A DNA stretch of 64,000 nucleotides from an uncultured Gemmatimonadota bacterium (GCA_951812955.1 OX638340.1:2048001-2112000), one strand, 5' to 3'; positions 1 through 59,293 are shown, numbered from the stretch's first letter. Numbers and translations are program-made. Notes: a model not told the origin generated them from the sequence alone.

Positions 1-792
1 CTCTGGGACATCGCGGGCAAGGCCGGCGGACGGCCCGTCTACCAACTCCTGGGTGGCGCGCACAGGCTGAAGTTCCGGGCCTATGCTTCCGTCCTGTTTG
101 GAGACACGCCTGCCACGACCCGGACAATCGGGCAGAAGTACGCCGACCAGGGATTCACGGCAGTCAAGTTCGGCTGGGGACCCATGGGCCAGGACGAAAC
201 GCAGGACGTCGCACTGGTGCGGGAGGCGCGCCGGGGCACGGGTGACGAGGTGGACGTACTCATCGACGCGGGGCAGGTCTGGGATTCGGAAACCGCGCTG
301 ATCCGGTCCCGCCAGTTTGCCGAATACCGACCCTTCTGGATCGAAGAGCCGCTGCACCCCGACGACATCGATGGGTATGCCTCACTGACCGCGGAGAGTC
401 CGGTTCCCATCGCCACAGGAGAAGCGGAATCCCGTCTCGAGGACTTTGAACGCCTGGTCACCAGGGGCGGGCTCGACTGGATTCAACCGGATCCGGGCCG
501 CTGCGGCATTACGACCATGGCCGCGGCCGGCCGGACCGCCCACCGGCACGGCCGCAAGGTCGTTAATCACAGTTACAAGAGCGGCATTACCATGGCGGCG
601 TCGCTCCATGCCCTGGCCTCCCTGCCCAACGCGTCCGTCTTCGAATTCTGCATGTCGGATTCGCCGCTGAGACATGAACTGACGCATGAACGTTTTACAA
701 TTGATGAAGACGGTTTCGTGGCGGTGCCGGAAGGACCCGGACTCGGCGTCACGGTGAACGAGGAAACCGTAAACCAGTACCGCGTAGCGTAG
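1..792 (+). CDS. enolase-superfamily (mandelate racemase/muconate lactonizing enzyme family) sugar-acid dehydratase-like protein, 5'-truncated at window edge
   Basis: C-terminal 202 aa with typical MR/MLE C-terminal domain signatures (EEP..D.. metal-ligand region, 'FWIEEPLHPDD', 'ATGE'); ORF open to position 1. Confidence 0.8.
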   Translation, partial: LWDIAGKAGGRPVYQLLGGAHRLKFRAYASVLFGDTPATTRTIGQKYADQGFTAVKFGWGPMGQDETQDVALVREARRGTGDEVDVLIDAGQVWDSETALIRSRQFAEYRPFWIEEPLHPDDIDGYASLTAESPVPIATGEAESRLEDFERLVTRGGLDWIQPDPGRCGITTMAAAGRTAHRHGRKVVNHSYKSGITMAASLHALASLPNASVFEFCMSDSPLRHELTHERFTIDEDGFVAVPEGPGLGVTVNEETVNQYRVA

Positions 793-816
793 TCTTATCT
801 CAAAGGAGTTGCAACG

Positions 817-1218
817 ATGGCCGCCCCCTCACCAGTCATGCATGCCGCACTCAACCGGATAAATATCGACGAGATCAAGGAACAGATAGGACCGCCGCCT
901 GCATCCTGCGCGGTCGTTGCAGCAGACCACGTGACGGCGGCGTTCATCTGGCAGGAATCGGGCACGATCAACGACAACCACTGCCACGATTACGACGAAT
1001 GGTGGCTCGTACTGGAAGGCGAGATCGACTGGGTGATCGAAGGCCGGAATGAACCGGTCCACGCAAAAGCGGGAGATTTCATCTACGTGCCCGCCCTGAC
1101 CTTCCATCACATATTCCCGGTGGGCGGCAAGCCTTCGATCCGACTGGGGGTCGCCCTGACGGGACACGGCCACCTCCACGAGCGGCCGGAGCGCAAGGTA
1201 AAGGTCACGTTGGAGTAG
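817..1218 (+). CDS. cupin-domain protein
   Basis: 133 aa; AAAGGAG RBS 8 nt upstream of ATG; cupin-like His/Glu pattern (HCHDYDEWWLVLEGE...H). Confidence 0.6.
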   Translation: MAAPSPVMHAALNRINIDEIKEQIGPPPASCAVVAADHVTAAFIWQESGTINDNHCHDYDEWWLVLEGEIDWVIEGRNEPVHAKAGDFIYVPALTFHHIFPVGGKPSIRLGVALTGHGHLHERPERKVKVTLE

Positions 1219-1253
1219 TATCACAACGGGTAGCGCCACAACGGAGTGAATGC

Positions 1254-1913
1254 ATGTCTACGAGAAATGAAAACCTCGCATCCATGAAGGAAGGCGGTGT
1301 GGTCGCGGTGCTCAGGGCAAGCAGTCCCGACGCGCTGGTCCACGTCGCCCAGGCTATCGGGAGGGGCGGGGTCGGGGCCGTCGAGATCACCATGACGACG
1401 CCCGGCGCCCTGGGCGTCATCGAAGAATGTGCGAGCAGGCTCGGGGGCGAACTGCTCCTTGGCGCAGGTTCCGTGCTGGACCCGGAGACGGCCCGCGCCG
1501 CCATACTGGCCGGCGCCGAATACATCGTGACACCAACGTTGAACCCGGACGTCATCACCCTCTGCCGCCGGTACGACAAGGTCGTCATCCCGGGCGCGTT
1601 GACGCCGACGGAAATACTGACGGCCTGGGAATGCGGCGCGGACATCGTGAAGGTGTTTCCTGCCACCGTGGTCGGACCTCGGTATTTCAGGGACGTGAAA
1701 GCGCCGCTTCCGCAGGTCGATCTCATGCCGACGGGTGGGGTAAACCTGGATAACGCCGGAGATTTCATCCGGGCCGGGGCCTGCGCCGTCGCCGTGGGCA
1801 GCAACCTGGTCGATAAGGCCGCCGTGGCCGCGGGCGAATGGCATGTGCTCACAGATACGGCCCGGGATTATGTGGATGCGGTCAGAAACGCCCGTCAGGA
1901 TGGTGGTGGATGA
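1254..1913 (+). CDS. eda: 2-dehydro-3-deoxyphosphogluconate (KDPG)/4-hydroxy-2-oxoglutarate aldolase
   Basis: 219 aa; characteristic Eda family sequence (VVAVLR..., GAVEITMTTPGAL, Schiff-base Lys region 'IVKVFPA', 'MPTGGV'). Confidence 0.85.
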   Translation: MSTRNENLASMKEGGVVAVLRASSPDALVHVAQAIGRGGVGAVEITMTTPGALGVIEECASRLGGELLLGAGSVLDPETARAAILAGAEYIVTPTLNPDVITLCRRYDKVVIPGALTPTEILTAWECGADIVKVFPATVVGPRYFRDVKAPLPQVDLMPTGGVNLDNAGDFIRAGACAVAVGSNLVDKAAVAAGEWHVLTDTARDYVDAVRNARQDGGG

Positions 1914-2743
1914 TTCGGAAGGCCGTGGTTCCCGTTGCGGGCCTGGGCACGCGGATGCTGCCCCTCACACGGTCAGTTCCCAAGGAAATGCTGCCCCTGG
2001 GCCGAAAACCGGCGATACACCGCGTGGTCGATGAACTGGCGGCGGCGGGAATCGAACATATCCTGTTCGTGACGTCCAGCCGAAAAACGGCGATCGAAGA
2101 GTACTTCGTGTCCGGCGGTCGGGAGGGTGGCCCGCCCCCGCTCGACTACGCTTTCGCCCGTCAGGATGTCCCGGCCGGAAACGGCGACGCCGTGCGGCTG
2201 GGCAAGGCCTTTGCGGGATCTGAACCCTTCGTCGTGGCCTGGGGCGACGCCGTGATCCGGTCGGCGACGGAAGGCAGCGTCGTGCGGCGCATGATGGAAA
2301 CCCACGCGAGAGCGCACGCCGCGTGCACCATTGCGGTGGAGTATGTACCCGAGGACAAGGTGTCGCGATACGGCATCGTAAAGCCCAGGTACGAATCCGA
2401 CACGGCCTTCCCCATCGACGATATCGTGGAGAAACCGGCGGCGGAAACCGCGCCCAGCCGCTACGCTGTTTCAGCCCGGTACATATGTGGCGCCGGGATC
2501 TTTACCGCGCTGGAGGAGACTCCCAGGGGAAGGAAAGGCGAGTTGTGGCTCGCCGACGCCATCCGCAGCTTGCTCCGTGAGGGCGGTCCGGTCTGGTGTG
2601 TGCCCCTGGACACTGACAGCAGGCGCTACGACATTGGCACACCCCTGACCTACTGGGAAGCCTTTGCCGATTACGCCCTGGAGGACGAGGCGGACGGAAC
2701 CTCCTTTCGTGAACTCCTGCAAGGGCGGTTGAACGATTCATAA
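1910..2743 (+). CDS. galU: UTP--glucose-1-phosphate uridylyltransferase-like sugar-1-phosphate nucleotidyltransferase
   Basis: N-terminus 'KAVVPVAGLGTRMLP...PKEMLPL' matches GalU signature; ATGA start/stop overlap with eda. Confidence 0.8.
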   Translation: MIRKAVVPVAGLGTRMLPLTRSVPKEMLPLGRKPAIHRVVDELAAAGIEHILFVTSSRKTAIEEYFVSGGREGGPPPLDYAFARQDVPAGNGDAVRLGKAFAGSEPFVVAWGDAVIRSATEGSVVRRMMETHARAHAACTIAVEYVPEDKVSRYGIVKPRYESDTAFPIDDIVEKPAAETAPSRYAVSARYICGAGIFTALEETPRGRKGELWLADAIRSLLREGGPVWCVPLDTDSRRYDIGTPLTYWEAFADYALEDEADGTSFRELLQGRLNDS

Positions 2744-2852
2744 CGAGCGAGTGGCAACGCGCATGGAGCATGCGTATCGGGGCACACACCTGCTTGACAA
2801 CACGCATCGGGCGTGCGTTCAGCGTGAATAGCGCGCACGCATTGGAGTCCAA

Positions 2853-3836
2853 TTGAACGGTACCGTAACCGCTTCCGCGCCCGGCCGGGTCGGCATCGTG
2901 GGCAATCCGACCGACATGTACGGCGGCAGCGTGATCTCGTGCTCGACGAAGGAAAGGGCGCGGGTCGATATACAGCCGGCGGACCGCCTGATTCTGGATG
3001 CCGGCGCCGAACAGCGGGTCATCTCGACGCCGGACGACCTGGTCACAAGGGAAGACATCTTCGATATCGCCCGGGTCGCGCTTTCCGGATCCGAATCGAC
3101 GGACCTGCGCGTCAGGATCTCCTGGACGACCGATATTCCTTTCCGTGCCGGACTGTCGGGGTCTACCGCGCTGCTCGTATCCATGGTAGCCGGCCTGCTC
3201 GCCTTCCGCGGCACCCGCCTCAGTCCCTATCACCAGGCGGAACTCGTCCGCAGAATCGAGTACCGGAACCTGACATTCTGCGGGTACCAGGATGCCTACA
3301 TGTGTACCTTCGGCGGGCTGCATTACATGGACTTCAGGGGGAAGGAATTCCACCTGGAATACGGGACCGATCCTTTCGCCACCATGGAACTGATCGAAAT
3401 GTCCGCAGCCCTGCCGGCCGTCGTGATCATCACAGGAGGGCAGCGCGTCTCCGGAGGCGTGCATACGCCCTTGCGGGAACGCTGGCTCGCCGGGGAGACA
3501 GAAGTGGTCGAGGCATACGAGGCCATCGCCGGCCTGGCCCGGGAAGGCAAGAAAGCAGTACTTGAAGACCGGCTCGACAAGCTGGGAAAGCTGATGAACG
3601 AGAACCAGACACTGACGCAGTCGCTCGGCGGATCCAATCTGGAGGACGACAGGTTCATCGAACTGGCCCGGCAGGCAGGCGCGTCCGGCGCCAAGCTCGC
3701 GGGCAGCAGCGGCGCTATCGTCGTGCTTCACGAGTCACCCGGAGATCTAGTAAAAGTAATGATGGACGCCGGTGCAGTGGGCATGCTGGAACCCGCACCG
3801 GGACCGGGGCTCCGTATCGAGCAGGAAGAATCATGA
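2853..3836 (+). CDS. GHMP-family sugar kinase (specificity unknown)
   Basis: TTG start with GGAG upstream; GHMP motif II-like 'PFRAGLSGSTALLVSMVAG'; 327 aa. Confidence 0.7.
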   Translation: MNGTVTASAPGRVGIVGNPTDMYGGSVISCSTKERARVDIQPADRLILDAGAEQRVISTPDDLVTREDIFDIARVALSGSESTDLRVRISWTTDIPFRAGLSGSTALLVSMVAGLLAFRGTRLSPYHQAELVRRIEYRNLTFCGYQDAYMCTFGGLHYMDFRGKEFHLEYGTDPFATMELIEMSAALPAVVIITGGQRVSGGVHTPLRERWLAGETEVVEAYEAIAGLAREGKKAVLEDRLDKLGKLMNENQTLTQSLGGSNLEDDRFIELARQAGASGAKLAGSSGAIVVLHESPGDLVKVMMDAGAVGMLEPAPGPGLRIEQEES

Positions 3837-3899
3837 GCGGGAAGAGCCATGAGCAGGAATGAATTATAGAAGAACTATATTGGTTGTAAGGGAGACGCC

Positions 3900-5192
3900 G
3901 TGAACATCACGCTCGACTACGACAGGTCCGGACTCGAAGTGCGTGTCCCGGACGAGAACCTCGTCGCGGTCCTGAACATGCGGGAGACGCCGCCGCTGGA
4001 TGACCCCGTTGCCGCGACTGGAGATGCGCTTTGCCAGCCCGTGGCCAGCCCACCGCTCGAGGAGATCGTCCGGGGCCGCCGGAACGCCTGCGTGGTTGTC
4101 TCCGACATCACGCGTCCCGTGCCCCACGACATTATCCTGCCGCCGCTGCTGGAGTGCCTGGAACGGTGCGAACTGCCGCCGGAGAATATCACCATCCTGG
4201 TCGCCACCGGGCTGCACGCTCCGATGGACGACGCGCAGCTTCGCGAGACCCTGACCGACGACGTGGTCGAGCGCTATCCCATCGTCAACCACATCGCACG
4301 CAACGGAAATGAACAGGCCGATCTGGGGACCACGAGCACCGGTATCCCCATCCACGTGGACCGCAGATATGTCGAAAGCGACCTCAAGGTGCTGACCGGG
4401 TTGATCGAGCCGCACTTCATGGCCGGGTATTCGGGTGGACGCAAGCTCGTCGCGCCCGGACTCGTGGGCGTCGAAACGATCGAGCACCTCCACGGACCTG
4501 GGATACTGGAACACCCCCGCGCCACGACGGGCGTCCTCGACGGCAACCCGCTTCACGAAGCCTCGCTTGAAATCGCCCGTAAGGCCTGGGTCGATTTCAT
4601 TCTCAACGTCGCCATGGACGAGGACCGCCGTGTCACCGGGGTGTTTGCCGGCGAACTCGACCGTGCGCACCGGTTCGGGGTCGACCACGTGAACGGCATG
4701 GTGGTGGCCACCGTCGAGGAACCGGTGGACATCGTCGTGACCTCAGCTGCAGGCTATCCCCTGGACACGACCTTCTACCAGGCCGTGAAGGGCATGGTCG
4801 GCGTGCTGGACATCCTGAAGGAGGGCGGATCCATCGTCATCGCCGCCGGATGCGCCGACGGGATCGGCAGCGCGGAGTTCGAAGGGTTGCTTCGGAAGAC
4901 GACGGACATCCACGCATTTGTCGAATGGATCCAGCAACCGGGCGTATTCACCATCGACCAGTGGGAGATCGAGGAACTGGTCAAGGCGTTGAAGAAGGGC
5001 CGGGTATATCTTTACACGGATGGATTGAGTGACGAGGACGTGCGCGCATGCCTGGTCGAGCCGGTTCCTTCCGTCGAGGCGGGCATCGCACGCGCCGTGG
5101 ATCGCCACGGCCCCAGCGCAACCATCGCCGTAGTCCCGAGAGGTCCCTACGTCATTCCCCGGGTTGTTCCCGGGCAGGACGCCGCCGGTTAG
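3900..5192 (+). CDS. larA: LarA-family (lactate racemase-like, nickel-pincer nucleotide dependent) 2-hydroxyacid racemase/epimerase homolog
   Basis: 430 aa; DUF2088/LarA N-terminal domain architecture; GTG start after AAGGGAGA RBS. Confidence 0.75.
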   Translation: MNITLDYDRSGLEVRVPDENLVAVLNMRETPPLDDPVAATGDALCQPVASPPLEEIVRGRRNACVVVSDITRPVPHDIILPPLLECLERCELPPENITILVATGLHAPMDDAQLRETLTDDVVERYPIVNHIARNGNEQADLGTTSTGIPIHVDRRYVESDLKVLTGLIEPHFMAGYSGGRKLVAPGLVGVETIEHLHGPGILEHPRATTGVLDGNPLHEASLEIARKAWVDFILNVAMDEDRRVTGVFAGELDRAHRFGVDHVNGMVVATVEEPVDIVVTSAAGYPLDTTFYQAVKGMVGVLDILKEGGSIVIAAGCADGIGSAEFEGLLRKTTDIHAFVEWIQQPGVFTIDQWEIEELVKALKKGRVYLYTDGLSDEDVRACLVEPVPSVEAGIARAVDRHGPSATIAVVPRGPYVIPRVVPGQDAAG

Positions 5193-5217
5193 CGCATGGC
5201 TTAACAACGAGCTTTCC

Positions 5218-5745
5218 ATGACCTCCAACAAGTACGTCCACCATACGCCCTGCATACACCCATCCGCCTTCGTTGCGGAAAGCGCCGATCTGATCGGTGC
5301 GGTCCACATCGGCAAGGACGCAAGCGTCTGGTACCAGGTGGTGATCCGGGCGGATGACGAACCCGTGACCATCGGCGGCGGGACCAACGTACAGGACGGT
5401 AGCGTTCTCCACATCGACACGGGCATGCCCACCGTACTTGGAGAGGGCGTAACCGTGGGGCACCGGGCGATTGTCCACGGCGCGGTAGTGGAAGATCACG
5501 TATTGGTCTCCATGGGCGCCGTGATCCTCAGTGGCGCGCACATCGGCCAGAACAGCATCATCGGCGCCGGCGCACTGGTGCTCGAAAACATGGAAGTGCC
5601 TCCGGGATCCCTTGTCGTGGGCGTTCCCGGACGCGTGGTTCGGTCCGTAACGGACGAGCAGATCGAACGCATTCACCGCACCGCGGAGGGGTATGTAACA
5701 CGTCGTGGAATCTACCTCGAACGGCGCGCTCACGGTACCTCTTGA
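5218..5745 (+). CDS. gamma-class carbonic anhydrase / hexapeptide-repeat (left-handed beta-helix) protein
   Basis: hexapeptide repeats and conserved His ligands (HxxxxH pattern 'HRAIVHGAVVEDH') typical of the YrdA/gamma-CA family. Confidence 0.75.
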   Translation: MTSNKYVHHTPCIHPSAFVAESADLIGAVHIGKDASVWYQVVIRADDEPVTIGGGTNVQDGSVLHIDTGMPTVLGEGVTVGHRAIVHGAVVEDHVLVSMGAVILSGAHIGQNSIIGAGALVLENMEVPPGSLVVGVPGRVVRSVTDEQIERIHRTAEGYVTRRGIYLERRAHGTS

Positions 5746-5794
5746 CCTCGTAATTTTGGGCGCTCCGGCTACCGTGCTTGGCTTCAAAATTCGC

Positions 5795-5823
5795 TTGACT
5801 TTCGCGGTCTCGACCTGTAGTTT
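5795..5823 (+). promoter_or_regulatory. candidate sigma70-type promoter for tRNA-Arg/tadA (TTGACT-17 bp-TAGTTT)
   Basis: TTGACT at 5795-5800, 17-bp spacer, TAGTTT at 5818-5823, ~27 nt upstream of tRNA 5' end. Confidence 0.4.
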
Positions 5824-5849
5824 CCGGTGCTCTGTTATGCAGGTCATGA

Positions 5850-5923
5850 GCGCCTGTAGCTCAATTGGATAGAGCACCTGACTACGGATCAGGAGGTTGG
5901 GGGTTCGACTCCCTCCGGGCGTA
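5850..5923 (+). tRNA. tRNA-Arg (anticodon ACG)
   Basis: cloverleaf with 7-bp acceptor stem, TTCGACT T-loop, anticodon loop CTACGGA. Confidence 0.9.
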
Positions 5924-5944
5924 TATTACGCGGGACGCGGCGCC

Positions 5945-6438
5945 ATGAGAAGCAACGGCGGAGAACACGAGGGATGGCTTCGGCTGGCCCTTGAAGAAGC
6001 CAGGTCGGCCGGCGCTGCCGGCGATGTGCCTGTCGGAGCCGTGATCGTACACGACGGCGTTGTGATCGGACGGGGTCAGAATCGCGTGGAACGTCTGCGT
6101 GATCCCACCGCCCATGCCGAAATGCTCGCGATCCGCGACGCCAGCGCCGCACTGGGTTACGAGCGGCTTGCCGGTGCCGCACTCTACGTTACGCTTGAAC
6201 CCTGCGCCATGTGCGCGGGCGCGATCGTGCTGGCCCGCTTGCAGCGCCTTGTGTACGGTGCCGCCGATCCCAAGACCGGAGCATGTGGTTCACTGCGCGA
6301 TATCGTGCGGGACACCCGGTTGAATCACCAGGTGGAAGTTGCGGGAGGTGTTCTGGCAGAGACCTGTTCAGGCCTGCTGAAGGACTTCTTCAGATCGAAA
6401 CGCAGAACGGGAGATACGGCTGTCGAACCGAGGTTGCC

Positions 6439-6460
<22 letters not shown>
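5945..6460 (+). CDS. tadA: tRNA-specific adenosine-34 deaminase
   Basis: CDA fold zinc motifs 'HAEMLAI' and 'PCAMCAGA'; 3' end overlaps the start of tRNA-Ser by ~20 nt. Confidence 0.85.
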
Positions 6461-6528
<68 letters not shown>

Positions 6529-6673
6529 CTTTCCATCTAAGCCACTCATTTAATTTGACTTATACTTTTGATACATGACAATTGCTCCGGATTCATTTCC
6601 GCAATTGTTCAGCATTTCGAATCCTAACCCTGCTTCATTCTCATCCATCCGCGTCATACCACACACACGTATC

Positions 6674-8644
6674 TCACCGCCCGGTTCGCGCGAAAGCAAC
6701 GAGCGACGCTTCTTCCCCTGAACCCGTTGCGATGACGACGAACTGCCGACCCGACCGGGTACGGTACGTCATCGGGTTCCCGTTTGCAGGATACGTCGTC
6801 CCGCCGCGCCAGATCTCGGCGCCGGTCGTCTTGTCGAAGGCGTACAGGTACGGATCGCCGCCGCCGAGGAATACGACGCCGCCCCGGGTCACCATCGGCC
6901 CGGAGTTCCCGATCGTGCCCATCCGCTCCGGCAGGTCGACACCGCTAAGCAACGGATGCTCGCGGATCTCCTCGCTACCTTCCCCGAACGGCACCCGCCA
7001 CGCAATCTCTCCCGCGTGAAGGTCAATCGCCACCAGGTGCGCGTAGGGTGGTTTGGTGAGCGGGATCGGGCCGAGTGGCCTCTCTGGGGCCTCCGCGGCA
7101 CCTGGGCCGCCGACCTCCCTGTACATGACGAGCGTCGCGCCAAAGGGACAGTTGTTGCTGTATTCCACGTCGACGCGCGGGTCGTCGCCCGTATTCTCGC
7201 AGAGCTGGTTCGTGTCGGCCTCCTCCGAAGTCCGCACGTACAGTATTCCGGTCTCGGGGTCGAAGGCCGCCCCGCCCCAGTTCGCTCCGCCGCTCGCGCC
7301 CGGGCGCTGGAGCGTCCCCCGGAGACTCGGCGGGGTGAATAGAGGACCCATCCGAAACTGCTTCATCTCTGCCACCGCGAGCGCATGGATCTCCGGTGTC
7401 AGGTCGTTCGCGTCGTCGAGCGACACCCCCTGCCTGCCGAATGGCGGCGGTTTGGTCGGGAACGGCTGCGTCGGATACAGCACCTCGCCAGGCACGTCCG
7501 TGGTCGTGTCCACGGCACGCTCCTCGATCGGCCATACCGGCTCACCTGTGACCCGGTCGAGCACGAATGTGAAGCCGTTTTTAGCTACTTGGGCCACCGC
7601 GTCGATTTCGCGGCCGCCCACCGTGATCGTCACCAGGTTCGGCGCCGCGGCCAAGTCGTAGTCCCACACGCCGTGGTGCACGGTCTGGAAGTGCCACCGC
7701 CGTTCGCCTGTGCGTGCGTCGAGACACACGAGGGACTCGGCGAAAAGATTCGCCCCCGGGCGTCGGCCTCCCCAGTAGTCGCTGCTTGGCGTGCTCGTCG
7801 GCGCATAGAGGAGTCCCCGCTCGGCGTCGAGCGACATCAGTCCCCACACGTTGGCGTGACCGCTATAACGCCAGGACTCGTCCTCCCAGGTCTCTGCACC
7901 GAAGTCGTCGCCTGATTGCGGGACAGTGAAGAATACCCAACGACGCTCGCCCGTTCGTACGTCGAAGGCCTGCACGGTTCCGGGCGGGTCAAACTTTCGC
8001 TGCACCCCGTCGGGCACCCGGCTCCCCACGATGACCAGATCTTCGAACACCACCGGAGGCGAGGTCTGGTCAAACTCATATCGGCTCACCTCGCGGCCAT
8101 GTCCCCTGGTCAACAGCACGCTCCCGTTCTCGCCAAAGTCCCTGACCAGTTTTCCGGTCACAGCGTTGATCGAATACAGCCGATCGCGGCTGTTGAGGAA
8201 TACACGGACAGCGCCTTCGTCTTTCCAGATAGCGATGCCCCGGTGCTTGAATCCGGTCGGCCCCGCACCTTCCTGCCCACCCTCGTACGCCCTGGGATCG
8301 AAAGCCCAGAGCACTACGCCAGTTTCGGCGTCAAGCGCAACGACGCGCGTGTACATGGTCGTCAGGTAGAGGACGTCACCCATCATGACGGGCGTTGCCT
8401 GGAAAGGCCCCGGTCGCGTGCCGTATTCCTGGAGGGGCGTCTCGTTTGGCTTCCACTCCCAGACGATCTCCAGATCACCGGCGTTGGCCGCCGTTATTTC
8501 TGCCGCCGCCGAGTACTTGGTGTGCTCCTGGTCGGACCCGACAAAGGGCCACTCGGCCATGACTGTCGGTTCCTGGGCGACCGAATTCCCTGTGTTCGCG
8601 AGGGAAAATGATATCAATAACGCTGTTGCAAGAATTCGTTTCAT
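6674..8644 (-). CDS. PQQ-dependent (quinoprotein) dehydrogenase, secreted (glucose/sugar dehydrogenase-like)
   Basis: 656 aa with N-terminal signal peptide; multiple W-rich beta-propeller repeats characteristic of PQQ quinoproteins. Confidence 0.8.
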   Translation of the reverse strand: MKRILATALLISFSLANTGNSVAQEPTVMAEWPFVGSDQEHTKYSAAAEITAANAGDLEIVWEWKPNETPLQEYGTRPGPFQATPVMMGDVLYLTTMYTRVVALDAETGVVLWAFDPRAYEGGQEGAGPTGFKHRGIAIWKDEGAVRVFLNSRDRLYSINAVTGKLVRDFGENGSVLLTRGHGREVSRYEFDQTSPPVVFEDLVIVGSRVPDGVQRKFDPPGTVQAFDVRTGERRWVFFTVPQSGDDFGAETWEDESWRYSGHANVWGLMSLDAERGLLYAPTSTPSSDYWGGRRPGANLFAESLVCLDARTGERRWHFQTVHHGVWDYDLAAAPNLVTITVGGREIDAVAQVAKNGFTFVLDRVTGEPVWPIEERAVDTTTDVPGEVLYPTQPFPTKPPPFGRQGVSLDDANDLTPEIHALAVAEMKQFRMGPLFTPPSLRGTLQRPGASGGANWGGAAFDPETGILYVRTSEEADTNQLCENTGDDPRVDVEYSNNCPFGATLVMYREVGGPGAAEAPERPLGPIPLTKPPYAHLVAIDLHAGEIAWRVPFGEGSEEIREHPLLSGVDLPERMGTIGNSGPMVTRGGVVFLGGGDPYLYAFDKTTGAEIWRGGTTYPANGNPMTYRTRSGRQFVVIATGSGEEASLVAFARTGR

Positions 8645-9048
8645 TATATCGGCAGTTCTTGAAAACCGCTTTGACTTCAGGAATCGCAGGTACGTATCCC
8701 GACATGGGACGCCAGGTGAAGAACCCGAGCAAGACGCGCGCGGTTCGAGATTTGGTCATGGTATATAGTTATTAAACACAATCAAGATGAATTCGGGGGG
8801 TTTTCTTGCTGTATAGCGCTTTTTAAACAAACGAGGCGATTACAACCCGACTGGTGAATTTCTATTGTTTCTGCAGGTTGGAAATGTTAAGTTACCTGAC
8901 CTGAAACGACGATGAGGTGTCGATGCAATGTGGTAGCAACTGTTTTGGTTTTTAAACTCGTGCGACAGTCAAAAACCCTGTCAACATTGGCCAGGGGAAC
9001 GAATTGTTGTGGGCATATTGGCGGTATTCGAGTATGCGACAATACCTG

Positions 9049-9133
9049 GGAGAGGTGCGAGAGCGGTCGAATCGGCACGCCTGGAGAGCGTGTGTTCACC
9101 ATGTGGACCGTGGGTTCGAATCCCACCCTCTCC
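9049..9133 (+). tRNA. tRNA-Ser (anticodon GGA)
   Basis: same acceptor/T-arm as the 6439 tRNA-Ser; anticodon loop CTGGAGA; long variable arm. Confidence 0.85.
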
Positions 9134-9229
9134 GTTGAAATCCGGGAAACCGGAATTGGAACGAAGGGGGAGTCGGATCTGGCCAGTCCTTGCCGGCCAT
9201 TTGGTACCGTGCCTCGTTCCACGAAATTT

Positions 9230-9302
9230 GGGGCAGTAGCTCAGTTGGGAGAGCGCCAGAATCGCAATCTGGAGGTCGGCGGTTCGATTCCGCTCTGCTC
9301 CA
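9230..9302 (+). tRNA. tRNA-Ala (anticodon CGC)
   Basis: GGGGCAG acceptor with G3:U70 Ala identity pair; anticodon loop ATCGCAA. Confidence 0.85.
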
Positions 9303-9376
9303 CTCGAGACGACGTGGCCGGCGTGATCATCAGACGGCCGTCCATGTCGTCCCGTAATACAGGCTTGGTACGAATA

Positions 9377-9650
9377 CGGTCGTGCTAGACGGGGAGTTAG
9401 CGGTGCCCTGTAACCCGCAATCCGCTACAGCGGGGTCGAATTCCCATCCCAAGGATCGCACTTGCGTCGCCGGTATGCGTTACAGCCGGTATTGAAAGTC
9501 AGGTCCTGCGCAACGTGACAACGCCCAACTCCGTCAGGACCGGAAGGTAGCAGCGGTAAGCGACTGAATCGTGTGCCGCGGGAGCGCCTGGCCGGAGCCG
9601 GCGGTACGGATGCCCCGATACGAGGAGATTCGAGGGTGGGTGCACGACCG
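9377..9650 (+). ncRNA. ffs: signal recognition particle RNA, long (Bacillus-type, Alu-domain-containing) form
   Basis: 5' segment 'CGGTCGTGCTAGACGGGGAGTTAGCGGTGCCCTGTAACCCGCAATCCGC...GAATTCCC' closely matches the B. subtilis scRNA 5' domain; domain IV motif 'GTCAGGACCGGAAGGTAGCAGC' at 9534-9555; 3' 'GCACGACCG' pairs with the 5' end; position just upstream of dnaX is the canonical ffs locus. Confidence 0.8.
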
Positions 9651-9702
9651 CTTAACTGTTTCCTCTTGATTTCGCCTGCCTTTCGTCCCGCTTAACCCAG
9701 GC

Positions 9703-11721
9703 ATGGAGGTTTGGGCATTGGCCTACGAAGTCACGGCCCGAAAGTGGCGTCCCCAGGCATTCGACGGCGTAATCGGCCAGGACCACGTCACCACCACGCT
9801 GAAAAACGCCATACAGGCCGGCCAGATCGCCCATGCTTATCTGTTCGCCGGACCGCGCGGCGTGGGAAAGACGACCACGGCCCGCATCCTGGCCAAGGCC
9901 CTGAACTGCGTCGATGGCCCCACCGTGACGCCCTGCAACGCCTGCACGTTCTGCCATGAGATCTCGGAAGGACGCAGCGTCGACGTGCTGGAAATCGACG
10001 GCGCGTCCAACAACCGGGTCGAGCAGGTTCGCTCGCACCTGCTCGAGAGCGTCAAGTACACGCCCAGCCAGGGCAAGCACAAGATCTACATCATCGATGA
10101 AGTGCACATGCTCACCAAGGAGGCCTTCAACGCGTTGTTGAAGACGCTGGAAGAGCCGCCGGCCCACGTTTACTTCATCTTCGCGACGACCGATCCCCGG
10201 AAAGTGCTCCCCACCGTGCTTTCCCGATGCCAGCGATTCGACTTCCGGCGCATATCGGGGCCCACCATCGTGGAACACCTTGCCATGATCAGCGACAAGA
10301 GCGGGTACGGCGTGCAGCGCGAGGCCCTGGCCCTGATCGCGCGGAGGGTGGACGGCAGCATGCGGGACGCCGAAAGCCTGCTGGACCAGGTCGTCGCCTT
10401 CGGCGGCTCCGGGTTGACCGCCAGCGAGGCGGCGGAGGTCCTGGGCATCGTGGATCAGGACGTCTATTTCGAGTTGCTGGACACCGTGGCGGATCAGGAC
10501 GTCCCGAAGGGGCTGGACCTGGTCGACCGGATCTTCCGCCAGGGCCACGACCTCGAAGAGATCATCCTGGGGATCCTGGAACACCTGCGCAACCTGCTCG
10601 TAGTCAAGGCGGCGCCGGAGGTGGAAGCGCTTATCGGCGATGCCGCGCTGGAGCTCGGCCGCTACAGGGAACAGGTCGAACGATTCGATACGGAAGACCT
10701 GCTCAGGCTATCGCAACTGGCTACGCAAATGGAGGAGGCCGTCAAGCAAAGCGCGCTGCCCAGGGTGCAACTCGAGACGGGTATCGTCCGCATGATACGC
10801 ATGTCGCGATCCGTGCAACTGACGGACGTTATGACTCGGCTGTCCGAAATGGCCCGGCGCGTGGGATCCCAGGAGGATGACGTCGATGCGTCCGAAGTAG
10901 CGCGTCCCGTAGGAACAAGCCCGCCCGCCATATCGCGGGATTCGTCCCCGGAAGATGATCCGCCGGCCTCACGGGACGCTACTGATTCAGCGACTTCGTC
11001 CGGCAAGACGGCCACAGCCCCGTCTTCCCGGTCTGCCGAAACCCCGTCTTCCCGGACTGCGGATCCACCGCGTGACACAGCGCCGGAAACGTCTGTTCAG
11101 GAGGTTCGCGGCCCGGCTGCATCCGCGGGATCATCGACGTCCACCACGACTGCGCCGATACTGGAACTGCGGACGGTCCAAGACCGTTGGTCCGCGGTCG
11201 TGGAAGAGGTCACCAGGCAACGAAGCGTCCTGGGGGGCCAGTTGAAGGAAGCCGAGCTTACGGGTTGGTCGCCGGCAGATCACTCCGGGTCGGGAGGACC
11301 CGCCACGATTACGCTCAGGTTCGGGCCCGGGCAGGACTTTCATAAGCAACGGACGGAAAAACGCGAAAACGCAGCGCTGATACAGTCGGTATGCTCCGAT
11401 ATCCTGGGGGTCCGGGTACGGATCGTATGCGAGATCGACGAAATCGACGCGGCGAAGGATACCGGGTCGGGAACGGATGCCGGCCTGGGAACGGACGAAG
11501 TCGAGCCGGGAACGGACCACATCAAAAACACGGCGGATGACGCCGGACCGGTCATGGACCCGCATTCCGGCATTGATGAAGATCCTTTCGGGGAACAACG
11601 GGAAAACGCGGCGACAGGCAAAACCGTCAGGCAGGCGGCAGATGCCCGCGCTGGCGCCGCGAAAGATCCGGCCGTCATGAAGATCGTCCAGGCTTTCGAC
11701 GGCCAGATTATAACGGACTGA
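9703..11721 (+). CDS. dnaX: DNA polymerase III subunits gamma/tau
   Basis: AAA+ clamp-loader motifs (GPRGVGKTT, Walker B DEVHML, SRC 'SRCQRF'); Ser/Thr/Pro-rich disordered linker in C-terminal half. Confidence 0.9.
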   Translation: MEVWALAYEVTARKWRPQAFDGVIGQDHVTTTLKNAIQAGQIAHAYLFAGPRGVGKTTTARILAKALNCVDGPTVTPCNACTFCHEISEGRSVDVLEIDGASNNRVEQVRSHLLESVKYTPSQGKHKIYIIDEVHMLTKEAFNALLKTLEEPPAHVYFIFATTDPRKVLPTVLSRCQRFDFRRISGPTIVEHLAMISDKSGYGVQREALALIARRVDGSMRDAESLLDQVVAFGGSGLTASEAAEVLGIVDQDVYFELLDTVADQDVPKGLDLVDRIFRQGHDLEEIILGILEHLRNLLVVKAAPEVEALIGDAALELGRYREQVERFDTEDLLRLSQLATQMEEAVKQSALPRVQLETGIVRMIRMSRSVQLTDVMTRLSEMARRVGSQEDDVDASEVARPVGTSPPAISRDSSPEDDPPASRDATDSATSSGKTATAPSSRSAETPSSRTADPPRDTAPETSVQEVRGPAASAGSSTSTTTAPILELRTVQDRWSAVVEEVTRQRSVLGGQLKEAELTGWSPADHSGSGGPATITLRFGPGQDFHKQRTEKRENAALIQSVCSDILGVRVRIVCEIDEIDAAKDTGSGTDAGLGTDEVEPGTDHIKNTADDAGPVMDPHSGIDEDPFGEQRENAATGKTVRQAADARAGAAKDPAVMKIVQAFDGQIITD

Positions 11722-18988: not shown

Positions 18989-19873
18989 ATGCGCATTCTC
19001 ATAACCGGCGCCCGTGGACAACTGGGTACGGACCTGCAGCGTTCACTGACGGATCACGAGTTGATACCGTGCACACGCGACGAGCTCGACGTCACGGAGA
19101 AACACCGTGTGTACGCCCTGCTGAAGGACCACCGGCCCGATGCGGTGATTAACGCCGCGGCGTACCACCGGGTCGACGAGTGCGAGTCCCATCCCGACAA
19201 GACATTTACCGTCAATGCCTTCGGTCCCTGGCACCTGGCCATGGCATGCCGCATGTACGCGGCGAAACTGGTGCACATCAGCACGAATTTCGTGTTCGAC
19301 GGCACGGCGGACAGGCCGTACCGGGAAGATGACCTGCCCCTGCCGCTGAACGTATACGGCACGGCCAAGCTGTCCGGCGAGCATTTGGTACGGTCGACCT
19401 GGGACCGTCATTTCATCATCCGGACCACCGGCCTGTTCGGACATTCCGGCGGTGGTGGCAAAGGGTACAATTTCGTCGAGGCCATGATCCGGGCGGGGAT
19501 GGAAAGACGGGAAGTGGTCGTGGTTAGCGACCAGGTGATGTCGCCCACGGCGACGGCGGACCTGGCCAGGACACTCGGGGAACTCGTCACAACCGATACC
19601 TACGGCACCTACCACGTCACCAGTGGCGGCGCGTGCTCCTACTTCGACTTCGCGCGGACCATCTTCCAGAAAACAGGAATAGAAACTGCAGTGAAACCCA
19701 CGTCCACCGAATCGTACGGCGCGCCGGCCGCCCGTCCCCTGTATACCGTACTGGACAACGGCCGGATCCGGTCCCTGGGCATCGCGGAGATGCCCCCGTG
19801 GGAAGACGCCCTGGACGACTACCTGGCGCGACGGGCCGGTCATGGCGAAGAAGCGATCGGCAGGATCCCATGA
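18989..19873 (+). CDS. RmlD-like NAD(P)-dependent sugar nucleotide 4-reductase (dTDP-4-dehydrorhamnose reductase family)
   Basis: N-terminal 'ILITGARGQLG' Rossmann motif, YxxxK catalytic pair ('YGTAKLSGE'); RmlD-family length and sequence. Confidence 0.8.
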   Translation: MRILITGARGQLGTDLQRSLTDHELIPCTRDELDVTEKHRVYALLKDHRPDAVINAAAYHRVDECESHPDKTFTVNAFGPWHLAMACRMYAAKLVHISTNFVFDGTADRPYREDDLPLPLNVYGTAKLSGEHLVRSTWDRHFIIRTTGLFGHSGGGGKGYNFVEAMIRAGMERREVVVVSDQVMSPTATADLARTLGELVTTDTYGTYHVTSGGACSYFDFARTIFQKTGIETAVKPTSTESYGAPAARPLYTVLDNGRIRSLGIAEMPPWEDALDDYLARRAGHGEEAIGRIP

Positions 19874-20856
19874 TCATCACCCAGACCCCCCTGCGCATCA
19901 GCTTCGCAGGCGGGCTGACGGATTTCTCCGATTTCTACGAGCGGGAAGACGGCCTGGTCGTCAGCGCGGCCATCGACAAATACATCTTCGTCATCATCAA
20001 TGAACGATTCGACGACCGGATTTACATCAACTATTCGAAAAGGGAGGCCGTCGATCATCCCGACGAGATCGAGCACGACCTGATCCGGGAGGCCCTGCGG
20101 CTTACCGGCGTGAGCCGGGGCGTGGAAATCACGACGCTGACGGACATTCCCGCCGAAGGATCTGGCCTGGGGTCCTCGAGCAGTATTACCGTGGGCCTAT
20201 TGAACGCCCTGTATACCTATTGCGGCAATCCGCAGCCCACGGAGAAACTGGCGCGGGACGCCTGCGAGATTGAAATCGACCGGTGCGCACAGCCAATCGG
20301 GAAGCAGGACCAGTACATCGCGGCCTACGGCGGGCTGCGCGGTTTCACTTTCCGGCCCGTCGGCGTGGAGGTGGAACACCTCGGCCTCGCCAACGGACAT
20401 GCGGAATGGTTGAGTGACAGTCTGATGCTGTTCTACACCAACAAGACGCGCAAGGCGGAAACCATCCTGCGCGAGCAGAAAGCGAATATGTCCGACAAAT
20501 TCACCCTCGTTAAAGAAATCAAATCCGTGGCGCAAGGTGTGCGTGCAGCCCTGACGGCCGGCCGGATCGACGGCATGGGCGAGCTGCTGGACCGGGGCTG
20601 GAAGTGGAAGTACAGGATGTCCGGCCTGGTGAGCAACGCCGAGATCGACTCCATGTACCGACGGGCCAAGGACGCCGGCGCCACCGGGGGCAAGGTATGC
20701 GGTGCGGGAGGCGGTGGTTTCCTGCTCCTGTTTTGTCCCGCATCCACCCGTTCCAGGGTCCGCGAAGCGCTGTCCGACTACAGGGAACTGCCCTTCAACC
20801 TGGAGCGGGACGGCACCAAGGTGATCTTCAATATGCGGAGGCAGGTATCAAAGTGA
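19870..20856 (+). CDS. hddA: GHMP kinase, D-glycero-alpha-D-manno-heptose 7-phosphate kinase-like
   Basis: 'MIITQTPLRISFAGGLTD' N-terminus and 'PAEGSGLGSSSS' motif typical of HddA; adjacent SIS isomerase gmhA. Confidence 0.75.
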   Translation: MIITQTPLRISFAGGLTDFSDFYEREDGLVVSAAIDKYIFVIINERFDDRIYINYSKREAVDHPDEIEHDLIREALRLTGVSRGVEITTLTDIPAEGSGLGSSSSITVGLLNALYTYCGNPQPTEKLARDACEIEIDRCAQPIGKQDQYIAAYGGLRGFTFRPVGVEVEHLGLANGHAEWLSDSLMLFYTNKTRKAETILREQKANMSDKFTLVKEIKSVAQGVRAALTAGRIDGMGELLDRGWKWKYRMSGLVSNAEIDSMYRRAKDAGATGGKVCGAGGGGFLLLFCPASTRSRVREALSDYRELPFNLERDGTKVIFNMRRQVSK

Positions 20857-20890
20857 TCCGCGAGAACCACGACTGGACACGGGAGGTCCG

Positions 20891-21457
20891 ATGATCCGCG
20901 AATACCTCGACTGGACACGGGAGGTCCTGGACCGGATCGATCCCGGCGAAGTGCAGGAACTCATCGATCTCCTGATGGACGCGCGGAAGAAAGGGCGAGG
21001 CATCTTCGTCATAGGGAACGGCGGCAGCGCGGCCACGGCCTCGCATTTCGCCGTGGACCTGGGCAAGGGCACGCTGCGCGGCACGGAAGATCAACCCCGA
21101 TTCCGGGTCAACAGCCTTACCGACAACCTCCCCTACGTCACCGCATGGGCAAACGACTTCGACTACGACCTGGTCTTCGAACAGCAACTTCGCAACCTGG
21201 GCGCCCCCGGCGATGTGGTCATCGGCATCAGCGCGTCGGGGAACAGTCCCAACGTGGTCCGCGCCCTGGAATTCGCCCGTACCGCCGGGATGGTTTCGGT
21301 CGCGATGACGGGGTTCTCAGGCGGCACGCTCATGGAAATCGCAGATCATTCTGTCCATGTCCCCGTAGACGACTACGGCATGGCGGAGAACATGCACATG
21401 CTCATCGTCCACATCATCGTCACGCAGACCACGTCCCGCGTAGCGAACGGCGAATGA
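20891..21457 (+). CDS. gmhA: SIS-domain sedoheptulose-7-phosphate isomerase
   Basis: 'IFVIGNGGSAATASHFAVDL' SIS motif; 188 aa. Confidence 0.8.
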   Translation: MIREYLDWTREVLDRIDPGEVQELIDLLMDARKKGRGIFVIGNGGSAATASHFAVDLGKGTLRGTEDQPRFRVNSLTDNLPYVTAWANDFDYDLVFEQQLRNLGAPGDVVIGISASGNSPNVVRALEFARTAGMVSVAMTGFSGGTLMEIADHSVHVPVDDYGMAENMHMLIVHIIVTQTTSRVANGE

Positions 21458-35375: not shown

Positions 35376-37361
35376 CTACGCCCATTCGTGCAGGGCGTGT
35401 CCCTGGCCGGGAAACCAGATCCAGTCCACGACAAAACCCAGAAACACCCCCACGCTGTACCCCACGAGCACGCCCCAGGCAAAGGGCTGGGCCCGGCGGT
35501 AGATGGTCACCCCGCCGATCCGCATCAGCAGCATCTTGATCAGCCAGGCCAGGAACAGCGAGAACATGAGCAGGCGGGTCACGTCGGCGAAGGCCACGGT
35601 GAAGCCCACAGGTGCCAGGGGCCAGCCGGGAAACCGGTAGGTCAGGGTCGTCATGACCAGCATGATGACGCCGCCGAGAGCCATGAACAGGAACTCGGGC
35701 GGCTGTAGCTGGTCGGCGTTGCGGATCCACCGCACGATATCGTCGAAGTAGATCTCGTTGATGCCGCCGAAGGCGTCGCGCGTACCGAAGTTGTACGCGC
35801 CGATGGTCGTATTCCCGATGTAGATTGTGTACAGGACGGACGTCAGCATGCTGACAATGAAGGTGACGGTCATGAGGCCGAGAAGCCCCCGCTTGTCCAG
35901 TCGCAGGTCGGACAGTACCTTGTCGGACTGGGCGATGGTGCCGATCCCCATGCCCCGCCAGTTCCGGGCGTAGACGGATCCTAGGCCCAGGGTGGTCAGG
36001 CTCTGGGGATCGATGTTTCCCGAGCCGACGGTCAGTATGGTGAAATGGTGGGCGTTGACCGGAAGGTCCATGAAGGCCAGGCCTGTCTGTGCGATGATCC
36101 GTGCCGTGCCCAGGTACAGGATGAATAAGAACAACAGGTACACGGGCAGCATCTGCCAGGAAAGGCCCGATCCCACGAGCCAGGCCACCAGGTAGACCAG
36201 GCTGCCCGAGAATCCAAGCACGGCCACGCGATAGGACATCAACTCCGTGGCCGGACGCTCGCCGCCACGCAGGGCCTGCCGAAATACATCGGCGATCTGA
36301 GCGCGGGCAGTCCACAGGTGCCAGAATACGAATACGATGAATCCGCCGAAGAACTGGGCCTTGACCACAGCATTCACCCCCACCGGGCTGCCGGAATACT
36401 GGAGCCCGACGCGGTCCAGCAGGCCGCCTTCCAGCACGCCGCACAGGGCGAAGAACCAGAGGCTGAACGTGATCTCCAGCGGCGCCAGGAAAGCGAAGCA
36501 CAGGGCGTAGATGTTGACGCTGACCCTGATGGGATCGATGCCCTCCGCCAGGGTCATCGAACTCTGATAGAGCACGCCAATAGGTATGGGCGAAATGCCG
36601 CCCCAGAACGCGGCGATGTTCCAGATCATCAGGGCCAGGGCGGCGCCGAAGCCCACCTGGAACATGCGGTCGTACACGAAGCCGGGAAAGGTCCGTTCGG
36701 TCCGTTCGTCGTGCCGGATCAGGTCGACGGCCATCTGTACGAGGGGAAAGGAAAGCCGCTCGTGGGCCACCCAGGTCCTCCGCATGATGGTGGACATGCA
36801 TGCGCCCATGAAGAACAGCACGACGAAGAGGGTCAGCCACCAGAAGAGGGGCGGGAGCCAGGGCCCCCAGATGACGTTGCCGGCTCCTTCCGGGATTCCT
36901 TCGTAGAACCACACCAGCGTGTTGCCCTGGCCGCTGACCAGCAGCCAGTCCGGCAGATATTCGAAGAAGGTGGCCTCCCACTGGTTCTCAGGCCGCGCAA
37001 AATAATACGGCGTGGCGATGACCCCCATGAGATAAGCGACCAGGACCTTGCCCGGCACGAGGGAGGAAACGAACATCATCACGAAGACCAGGGCCAGCTC
37101 GCTTCCGCTCAGCACCCAGGCCGGTCTCCATGTTCTCAGCGCCGGGTTGACGATGAGCAGGAGGAAGAAGAAGGGGATCAGGACCGCGATGGGCAGGTGG
37201 GACATCGTCATGCGGGAGGACTGCACGAGGAAGGAGCCGAAGGGGACCCAGATGTTGATCAGGACAGCGAGGGCCAGACCCAGGACTACGGCGCGGCGGG
37301 ATATGCCGGCTGATCGCGATATACCGGGTCGCGGGATACCAATGCGCGGTTTGGTTGCCAT
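35376..37361 (-). CDS. uncharacterised polytopic integral membrane protein (~14 predicted TM helices)
   Basis: 661 aa, highly hydrophobic, Trp-rich helices, no recognisable catalytic motif; divergently oriented from the 1542-aa permease fusion. Confidence 0.6.
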   Translation of the reverse strand: MATKPRIGIPRPGISRSAGISRRAVVLGLALAVLINIWVPFGSFLVQSSRMTMSHLPIAVLIPFFFLLLIVNPALRTWRPAWVLSGSELALVFVMMFVSSLVPGKVLVAYLMGVIATPYYFARPENQWEATFFEYLPDWLLVSGQGNTLVWFYEGIPEGAGNVIWGPWLPPLFWWLTLFVVLFFMGACMSTIMRRTWVAHERLSFPLVQMAVDLIRHDERTERTFPGFVYDRMFQVGFGAALALMIWNIAAFWGGISPIPIGVLYQSSMTLAEGIDPIRVSVNIYALCFAFLAPLEITFSLWFFALCGVLEGGLLDRVGLQYSGSPVGVNAVVKAQFFGGFIVFVFWHLWTARAQIADVFRQALRGGERPATELMSYRVAVLGFSGSLVYLVAWLVGSGLSWQMLPVYLLFLFILYLGTARIIAQTGLAFMDLPVNAHHFTILTVGSGNIDPQSLTTLGLGSVYARNWRGMGIGTIAQSDKVLSDLRLDKRGLLGLMTVTFIVSMLTSVLYTIYIGNTTIGAYNFGTRDAFGGINEIYFDDIVRWIRNADQLQPPEFLFMALGGVIMLVMTTLTYRFPGWPLAPVGFTVAFADVTRLLMFSLFLAWLIKMLLMRIGGVTIYRRAQPFAWGVLVGYSVGVFLGFVVDWIWFPGQGHALHEWA

Positions 37362-37711
37362 GGTCTGGTACGCCGAAAGGACAAAGGAAACCGGTTTTTA
37401 GCGGTGAAAGGATTCCGGGTCTGTACGCTGAATTCAATATATCCGGTTCCCAACAGGCGGCACAACCCTAGATTTGGAACGCAAAGCCAAGGTCATGGTT
37501 TTTGCTTGAACCGGTGCTTCAACCTTTTTATATTGCTTTGTTCAAGAATGCAACGGCTCACTACGCTCGGGATGTATGCGTCTGATCGGGCCTCGCGGCA
37601 GTTCCGGGCCTTCCCATGTTAATCAGCGATGTCAAACGCGAAAGCGGCGAAATGCGCGGCTGCGAGGGTGCGGAACCGCCGGTTGCCGGATACCGACAGG
37701 GGTAGCAAGTC

Positions 37712-59220: not shown

Positions 59221-59293
59221 TTCCCGGCCTATTGGTTACCTTGAAAACAACTCCCCTTCGTTCGTCGGTAAAGCGAATCGACGATTCCACATC

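Follow-up and report, generated by a model that had tools for sequence, protein, structure and literature searches.

A group-2 LarA homolog among sugar genes of an uncultured bacterium: probably held there by inherited gene order

Introduction

Why should a LarA-type racemase gene lie among genes for sugar and sugar-acid metabolism, with none of the genes for its cofactor beside it? The question is raised by a 64,000-nucleotide stretch of DNA from an uncultured bacterium recorded as Gemmatimonadota (GCA_951812955.1, OX638340.1:2048001-2112000). This whole stretch is called the window here, and positions are counted from its first letter. Near its start, a homolog of the lactate racemase LarA is preceded by genes for an enolase-superfamily dehydratase-like protein, a small cupin, an aldolase (Eda), a GalU-like nucleotidyltransferase and a GHMP sugar kinase. 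A first-pass annotation had recognised all of these genes, which are indeed present on the + strand where it had placed them or close by, and had read them as one uronate/aldonate utilisation island. It is reasonably probable, on the evidence below, that the region is instead a mosaic of three independent small metabolic modules, set within a block of conserved housekeeping genes in an uncultured marine lineage and held together by inherited gene order. The evidence for this reading includes the active site and family placement of the LarA homolog and the separate comings and goings of its neighbours among related genomes.

Family and active site of the LarA homolog

The LarA homolog (3900..5192, + strand) contains both domains of its family at full length, Lar_N (PF09861, E 1.8e-58) and LarA_C (PF21113, E 4e-26). 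A sequence search of the PDB puts the broad-spectrum lactate racemase of Isosphaera pallida nearest among solved structures (9EID/9EIA, 452 bits), and identity to LarAH2 of that organism is about 49% over 399 aligned positions. Other solved LarA homologs score at most 245 bits: the lactate racemases of Lactiplantibacillus plantarum (L. plantarum; 236 for its LarA) and T. thermosaccharolyticum reach 236-245, and the malate racemase Mar2 reaches 217. Among NCBIfam models the best is the lactate racemase equivalog NF033504, at 410.7 bits and under its cutoff of 460. The hexonate-epimerase model NF052594 yields 25 bits against a cutoff of 500, and the model for LarAH14/15/16 yields 68 against 740.

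Twenty signature positions have been tabulated for 354 LarA homologs (Dataset S2 of Desguin et al. 2020, PMC7583248), and the pattern given for group 2 is D R H H L/F M K H. Y Q V K F/V V D W Q/E. E/K. Alignment with the group-02 sequences Isop_3476 and Mahau_0818 allowed 19 of the 20 positions to be read in the homolog, I220 being left out. They read D R H H F M K H Y Q V K F I D W E I E, in agreement with group 02 ("SAR") at 19/19 positions, and differ from Mahau_0818 by two Val-to-Ile changes only. Four of the positions bear on specificity: lactate racemases have F,F,W,E/Q there, and gluconate 2-epimerases have E,V,A,H (Urdiain-Arraiza et al., PMC11770544). At the positions of F175, F176, W358 and T359, the homolog has F,M,W,E. 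This signature is kept in every LarA ortholog examined, down to 68% identity, among the ingroup, by which we mean 26 species-level genomes of the window's lineage.

The residues expected of an enzyme that uses the nickel-pincer nucleotide (NPN) are all in place. Catalytic His106 and His172 align with His108 and His174 of the L. plantarum enzyme and are conserved in 13/13 relatives aligned. The NPN-binding D69 and R72, the tethering K182 and the nickel ligand H198 are present (L. plantarum Asp72, Arg75, Lys184 and His200), as are the carboxylate-binding R72, Y293, Q294 and K297. Conservation of the catalytic, NPN-binding and carboxylate-binding residues extends to all orthologs checked, from 96% down to about 50% identity. 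Such conservation across orthologs speaks for an NPN enzyme that is active.

LarAH2, the group-2 enzyme that has been characterised, acts as a racemase on lactate, 2-hydroxyisovalerate and 2-hydroxyisocaproate, and is without gluconate 2-epimerase activity. By its sequence, the homolog in the window is apparently a functional NPN enzyme of the short-chain, lactate-type racemase kind, not a sugar-acid epimerase. Placed among the LarA subfamilies, it groups with the lactate and short-chain racemases, which is part of what the first-pass annotation had itself named as counting against its proposal. That annotation had LarA feeding a mannonate dehydratase by 2-epimerisation of a sugar acid. The gluconate-to-mannonate step is unsupported because gluconate epimerases have E,V,A,H where this protein has F,M,W,E.

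Dehydratase, cupin and aldolase

The other half of the proposed island is the route from a sugar acid to Eda. Only the C-terminal 263 aa of the enolase-superfamily protein (mandelate racemase subgroup; 1..792, + strand) lie in the window, whose start truncates the gene (MR_MLE_C, E 2.5e-59). It was assessed through a full-length ortholog from a related genome (L014) that is 95% identical to the fragment. The ortholog has both the N- and the C-terminal MR_MLE domains, and its best PDB match is 3SJN (275 bits), an uncharacterised MR/MLE protein on which a literature search found nothing. Its best NCBIfam families are the galactonate, gluconate and arabinonate dehydratases. It falls under every equivalog cutoff in NCBIfam: GalD 178 bits against 311, gluconate/galactonate 157 against 750, arabinonate 156 against 650, RhamD 123 against 393. 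The mannonate dehydratase model ManD (NF043051) gives 125.7 bits against 550, and the proposed identity as a mannonate dehydratase is unsupported. By family scores the protein is acid-sugar-dehydratase-like, with no specificity class assigned.

Next comes the small cupin (133 aa; 817..1218, + strand; Cupin_2, E 1.3e-10), followed by the 2-keto-3-deoxy-6-phosphogluconate (KDPG)/2-keto-4-hydroxyglutarate aldolase Eda (1254..1913, + strand; PF01081, E 1.2e-41). Eda passes its equivalog model (TIGR01182, 184.2 bits against a cutoff of 156). To this extent the first-pass annotation holds, since an enolase-superfamily protein of the acid-sugar type and an Eda aldolase do stand side by side.

A glucuronokinase-like kinase and its transferase partner

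The GalU-like sugar-1-phosphate nucleotidyltransferase (1910..2743, + strand) matches NTP_transferase (PF00483, E 3e-30). The GHMP kinase gene (2853..3836, + strand) follows and encodes both GHMP_kinases_N and GHMP_kinases_C domains. A profile of 22 bacterial orthologs of this kinase was compared by hhalign with a profile of 10 plant glucuronokinases, and the two matched over 294 columns with 99.9% probability (E 3.3e-37). An Arabidopsis glucuronokinase sequence is 99% identical to an A. thaliana "putative glucuronokinase" record in the protein database (P0242); BLASTP of the window's kinase against that record gives 29% identity at E 1e-32. The kinase also has the motifs GNP[ST]D.Y and RWL.G, which match the peptides VGFLGNPSDVYFGR and WLDGDEF of the purified Lilium enzyme. 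Sequence matches to the PDB are weak, the best being mevalonate kinase (62 bits), with the heptokinase WcbL also found. By fold, Foldseek comparison of the AlphaFold model (pLDDT 88) against the PDB returned generic GHMP kinases only (mevalonate kinase, heptokinase WcbL, galactokinase and fucokinase), the PDB being without a glucuronokinase structure. By homology the protein is a member of the glucuronokinase family.

The transferase scores 213.8 bits, in two stretches, against TIGR01099 (galU; cutoff 326.8). When one genome per species was scanned, 433 relatives of the kinase came up, of which 80 loci were kept, mostly from Chloroflexota and Latescibacterota. Outside the ingroup, 48 of 55 loci have a transferase ortholog immediately ahead of the kinase gene, most of the gaps being 6-50 nt; two of the seven others have no upstream sequence. 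These pairs occur in Chloroflexota, Latescibacterota, Planctomycetota, Armatimonadota and others. The pairing of its orthologs with a GHMP kinase across phyla suggests that the transferase is a specialised paralog. The profile match and the conserved pairing also support, at the level of homology, the analogy drawn in the first-pass annotation between this pair and glucuronokinase plus a pyrophosphorylase, that is, an anomeric kinase followed by a pyrophosphorylase. No characterised bacterial member of the glucuronokinase-like family was found in the searchable literature.

A xylose-isomerase-like TIM-barrel protein lies directly upstream of the transferase-kinase pair in 16 Chloroflexota loci (among L040-L093; for example 8185..9069 in L079), and in L013 the TIM-barrel protein in that place (5401..6216) is AP_endonuc_2. 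The xylose-isomerase-like protein may be a third member of the transferase-kinase module. A protein of the same Pfam family is found in the window far from the pair, at 42337..43245, and its best hit is the 5-keto-L-gluconate epimerase IolO (94 bits, cutoff 300). The window also encodes a second GHMP kinase of 407 aa (within 19633..21457), with heptose-7-phosphate kinase HddA as its best NCBIfam hit (149 bits, cutoff 600), and after it a GmhA-like SIS protein (sedoheptulose-7-phosphate isomerase, 124 bits, cutoff 209). The stretch 19633..21457 looks like part of a nucleotide-heptose pathway, with no cognate nucleotidyltransferase adjoining it.

Gene order among relatives

Among the 26 ingroup genomes, the transferase is present in 26, LarA in 25, the hexapeptide-repeat gene that follows LarA in the window in 24, Eda in 24, and the dehydratase and cupin each in 21. 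LarA adjoins the kinase in 25/26 ingroup species, and a group-2 LarA does so in none of 54 scanned outgroup kinase loci. The hexapeptide gene comes after LarA in 24/26 ingroup genomes. One genome (L034) cleanly lacks LarA, so that the hexapeptide gene directly follows the kinase, and it also lacks the dehydratase and cupin while keeping all other genes of the block. Another (L030) has kept LarA and is missing the hexapeptide gene. Four of the five genomes without the dehydratase and cupin retain LarA, L034 being the one that has neither. Dehydratase and cupin are limited to the closer ingroup relatives; in at least the five more distant loci with gene calls, their place ahead of eda is taken by a PfkB kinase. 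More distant ingroup relatives also have a hybrid histidine kinase gene between those for the transferase and the GHMP kinase. Because dehydratase and cupin, LarA, and the hexapeptide gene come and go separately among relatives, the modules vary independently.

Scanning metagenomes with an alignment of group-2 LarA sequences yielded 80 loci, and these show no recurrent neighbour. The commonest are an ABC ATPase (4 loci), a protein that by inspection resembles FAD-linked oxidases of the GlcD/D-lactate dehydrogenase type (4) and the transferase (3). A homolog 53% identical to the window's LarA stands by itself, flanked by rplQ and fabD. That LarA adjoins the pair is in essence a trait of a single lineage, with one small clade apart from it.

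Explanation of the locus

The favoured mosaic would work as three separate units. The dehydratase-like protein, the cupin and Eda would form a sugar-acid catabolic trio. In the salvage pair, phosphorylation of a free sugar (probably a uronic acid) at C1 by the kinase would give a sugar-1-phosphate, which the transferase would turn into a nucleoside diphosphate (NDP)-sugar. LarA, with NPN tethered to Lys182, would abstract hydride at C2 of a short 2-hydroxyacid, lactate or one like it, and add it back on the other face, with His106 and His172 as the acid/base pair; such a racemase would let the cell use or make both enantiomers. Its position beside the kinase would reflect inherited gene order and no shared pathway.

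Several observations weigh against this reading. The gap between the GHMP kinase and LarA is 6-28 nt in most ingroup genomes, and the survival of such tight spacing through rearrangement of the surrounding genes could reflect selection for co-expression. An unrelated metagenomic contig (L012) has the order transferase-kinase-methyltransferase-LarA, and in three further loci (L122, L133 and L135) LarA directly follows the transferase and the kinase is absent. The transferases of these three are 46-48% identical to that of the window, the same range as for kinase-paired transferases of other phyla. In a rough neighbour-joining tree without support values, the LarAs of L012, L122, L133 and L135 form one clade apart from the ingroup clade. 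The association of transferase and LarA arose once or twice. The substrates of all proteins, moreover, are read from sequence, and the placing of larB, larC and larE elsewhere in the genome is an assumption.

These points lend themselves to a rival explanation, in which LarA is a working partner of the transferase-kinase module in an undescribed pathway. It might invert the carbon beside the carboxylate of a uronic acid, or of a sugar bearing a 2-hydroxyacid, before or after activation; or it might supply one enantiomer of lactate or glycerate for phosphorylation and nucleotidylation. The narrow gap, seen in most of the 25 ingroup species with LarA, and the second LarA clade adjoining the same transferase family in two different arrangements both speak for such a role. 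Set against them, 48/55 outgroup transferase-kinase pairs are found without LarA and 77/80 group-2-like LarA loci without either partner, and both associated LarA clades may share a single ancestral arrangement. Neither LarA nor the kinase is obligatory for the other, because L034 has lost LarA and the loci of the L122 type have lost the kinase. The LarA pocket is also of the small-substrate type, and that of L012 differs (V,V,W,M). A working partnership is therefore unlikely. Since proximity of LarA to this family of transferases recurs, across two LarA clades and three gene arrangements, some chance attaches to group-2 LarA being a genuine part of the module, inverting the carboxylate-adjacent carbon of a uronic acid, a carboxylated sugar or a small hydroxyacid that is later phosphorylated and nucleotide-activated, but we regard this as distinctly doubtful. 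An F420-type phospholactate route (lactate kinase plus guanylyltransferase) was considered and rejected: the transferase is GalU-like, not CofC-like, and no F420 genes lie nearby.

Some side features of these loci are worth recording. The methyltransferase between the GHMP kinase and LarA in L012 (7849..9129) is an N6/N4 DNA methyltransferase whose start overlaps the end of the kinase. L122 (1..15357) and L133 come from a lineage with a T9SS-signal protein, and a dehydratase 70% identical to the window's is encoded on the opposite strand. The gene order in both is an AMP-binding enzyme, transferase-LarA, two conserved proteins without a Pfam match and a PlsC-type acyltransferase. The two conserved proteins are a lipoprotein-like one of 365 aa (53% identical between both loci) and one of about 150-165 aa. 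The 365-aa protein, downstream of LarA, was examined as a diverged GHMP kinase and ruled out (hhalign probability 0.2%).

The single island of the first-pass annotation fares worse. There, LarA would be a sugar-acid 2-epimerase, converting for example gluconate to mannonate for the dehydratase; the product would pass from 2-keto-3-deoxygluconate (KDG) to KDPG and Eda, with the kinase and pyrophosphorylase belonging to the same uronate/aldonate system. It draws on the co-directional genes with their short gaps, on the joint presence of an acid-sugar-type dehydratase, Eda and a glucuronokinase-like kinase, and on LarAH10, a LarA homolog for hydrophobic substrates that is reported to have weak gluconate epimerase activity. 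The LarA specificity residues, the low scores on the hexonate-epimerase, LarAH14/15/16 and ManD models and the inactivity of LarAH2 on gluconate all speak against it, as do the separate comings and goings of the modules among relatives, and the cluster of the window's clade has no KDG kinase. The block, besides, sits among housekeeping genes (eno, recO, tadA, dnaX and recR). We consider a coherent island very improbable.

Cofactor synthesis genes

The mosaic reading also has to accommodate the missing cofactor genes. That larB, larC and larE are absent from the window had been noted at first pass, and Pfam scans of all sizeable open reading frames agree: no LarB (AIRC), LarC (PF01969) or LarE (PP-loop) domain occurs in the 64 kb. 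Pfam-annotated gene calls in five relatives likewise show no larB, larC or larE within 8-10 kb either side of LarA. In Table S1 of PMC7583248, group 2 has COG3875 only, with no LarB, LarC, LarE or other associated COG. The larBCE genes are reported to be commoner than larA, about 15% of genomes carrying them without any larA. Because published group-2 members are without adjacent larBCE and without conserved context, the absence of these genes from the window is normal; presumably, as usual in group 2, they sit in another part of the genome. A genome truly devoid of larB, larC and larE, with LarA inactive, on a scavenged cofactor or on a different one, would fit the empty surroundings of LarA in the window and its relatives, but is most unlikely given the conserved NPN-binding and catalytic residues (Asp, Arg, two His, Lys and His) and the like arrangement of published group-2 genomes.

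The gamma-carbonic-anhydrase-like gene downstream of LarA was considered as linked to the carboxylation step of LarB. This was ruled out, as the gene is kept in L034 without LarA and is absent from 80/80 outgroup LarA loci.

Locus layout and other features of the window

Seven co-directional + strand genes occupy the first 5.7 kb of the window. The last of them, which the first-pass annotation did not name, encodes the gamma-carbonic-anhydrase-like hexapeptide-repeat protein (5218..5745, + strand; Hexapep, E 9.6e-14; NF050158, 169 bits against a cutoff of 250). The run terminates at tRNA-Arg(ACG) (5850..5923). The domain matches of its genes are strong database matches and not due to chance. 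The ATG of the transferase overlaps the eda stop codon as ATGA, by which the transferase is translationally coupled to eda. Gene spacing alone suggests co-transcription and the operon boundaries, and scans of 1..6600 for consensus promoters and terminators gave nothing above the shuffled background. Upstream of the block in relatives are eno, divIC and recO, and downstream in the window follow the housekeeping genes tadA, dnaX, ybaB, recR, pgsA, cinA, ligT and alaS.

Genomes with the same block (L014-L039) are labelled at NCBI as Gemmatimonadetes, Candidatus Latescibacterota or Candidatus Zixiibacteriota; given these three differing labels, the phylum assignment of the lineage is inconsistent in public records. 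The names of several such records resemble those of metagenome isolates from marine invertebrates, which may be sponges or corals.

The gene for the tRNA adenosine-34 deaminase TadA (open reading frame 5897..6460, with a probable start near 5945) comes right after its own substrate tRNA-Arg(ACG), and its 3′ end overlaps tRNA-Ser(CGA) (6439..6526) by about 20 nt. This order may allow enzyme and substrate to be co-transcribed. Beyond it, the minus strand encodes a dehydrogenase of the glucose/quinate type dependent on pyrroloquinoline quinone (6674..8644; PF01011, E 5e-191) that, unlike the TIGR03074 family, has no N-terminal membrane domain. The gene lies between tRNA-Ser(CGA) and a tRNA-Ser(GGA)/tRNA-Ala pair (region 6674..9303). 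This tRNA-flanked slot is a variable insertion site, since a relative (L001) has a Big_2/LRR protein there. GC content falls to 0.58 in 8001..10000.

At 35376..42340, a DUF6785/DUF6784 protein (661 aa, minus strand) lies beside a 1542-aa protein with peptidase M28 and FtsX-like permease domains, and no function is assigned to either. At the far end of the window (56488..63986) are genes for polysaccharide degradation, encoding a PcRGLX-like/GH127-like protein (910 aa) and a GH116 beta-glucosidase-like protein (minus strand), with no linkage to the sugar genes at its start.

Significance

All parts of the locus belong to known kinds, and the finding is mostly ordinary. The initial observation of a LarA homolog in this setting was right, as was the analogy of kinase and pyrophosphorylase; the pathway in which LarA feeds ManD is contradicted by specificity residues and family scores. 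The physiological role of group-2 LarA has so far been unexplained by gene context. Here, a tempting sugar-acid context turns out to be mostly inherited gene order, and recognising this guards against annotating the protein as a sugar-acid epimerase. More useful, as a by-product, is the pair of transferase and glucuronokinase-like kinase, which is widespread and tightly linked. In some fish, amphibians and fungi, both the kinase and the transferase activities are fused in one protein, and the pair looks like a bacterial counterpart of this eukaryotic glucuronokinase/pyrophosphorylase fusion. Should it be true that the pair makes UDP-glucuronate from free glucuronate, it would constitute a salvage route that we have not found described in bacteria.

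Comparison with known systems

The enolase-superfamily acid-sugar dehydratases (GalD, GnaD, AraD, TalrD/GalrD, ManD and RhamD) share their MR_MLE domains with the dehydratase of the window. In contrast to them, the latter remains under all equivalog cutoffs, and its closest structure, 3SJN, is functionally uncharacterised.

The nearest known relative of the LarA homolog is LarAH2 of I. pallida, also called Sar or LarA_Ip (9EIA, 9EID and 9EIF). The two belong to the same two-domain fold family and have identical catalytic, NPN-binding and carboxylate-binding residues. They are also alike in pocket architecture (the residue after the second His, followed by Met, Trp and Gln/Glu) and in having no adjacent larBCE and no conserved context. 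The window's protein differs in having Phe for the Leu after the catalytic His and Glu for the flexible Gln357. Its Phe/Glu pocket resembles those of the uncharacterised group-2 protein Mahau_0818 and of the lactate racemase LarAH51. Because of these pocket differences from LarAH2, its substrate range may be narrower or shifted.

The group-1 LarA of L. plantarum is alike in superfamily, mechanism residues, expected cofactor and type of signature (F,F,W,T/E/Q against F,M,W,E). The similarity does not extend to the larABCDE operon: the score to that LarA is only 236 bits, and no larB, larC, larD, larE, larR or lactate permease lies near the LarA of the window. The gluconate 2-epimerases GntE1 and GntE2 (LarAH19 and LarAH20) and the putative hexonate epimerases of group 18 belong to the same superfamily, but GntE1 and GntE2 have E,V,A,H in place of F,M,W,E.

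For the kinase, the closest characterised system is plant glucuronokinase (Arabidopsis GlcAK, At3g01640); it has motifs in common with the plant enzymes and aligns with them over the 294 columns, and at only 29% identity the sugar may differ. The zebrafish fusion protein DrGKUP provides the parallel for the pair as a whole. The pyrophosphorylase activity of the corresponding DrGKUP domain was not demonstrable in vitro. Its N-terminal nucleotidyltransferase domain is of the bacterial type and is followed by the glucuronokinase, an order that is the same as that of the bacterial transferase and kinase, encoded here by two genes.

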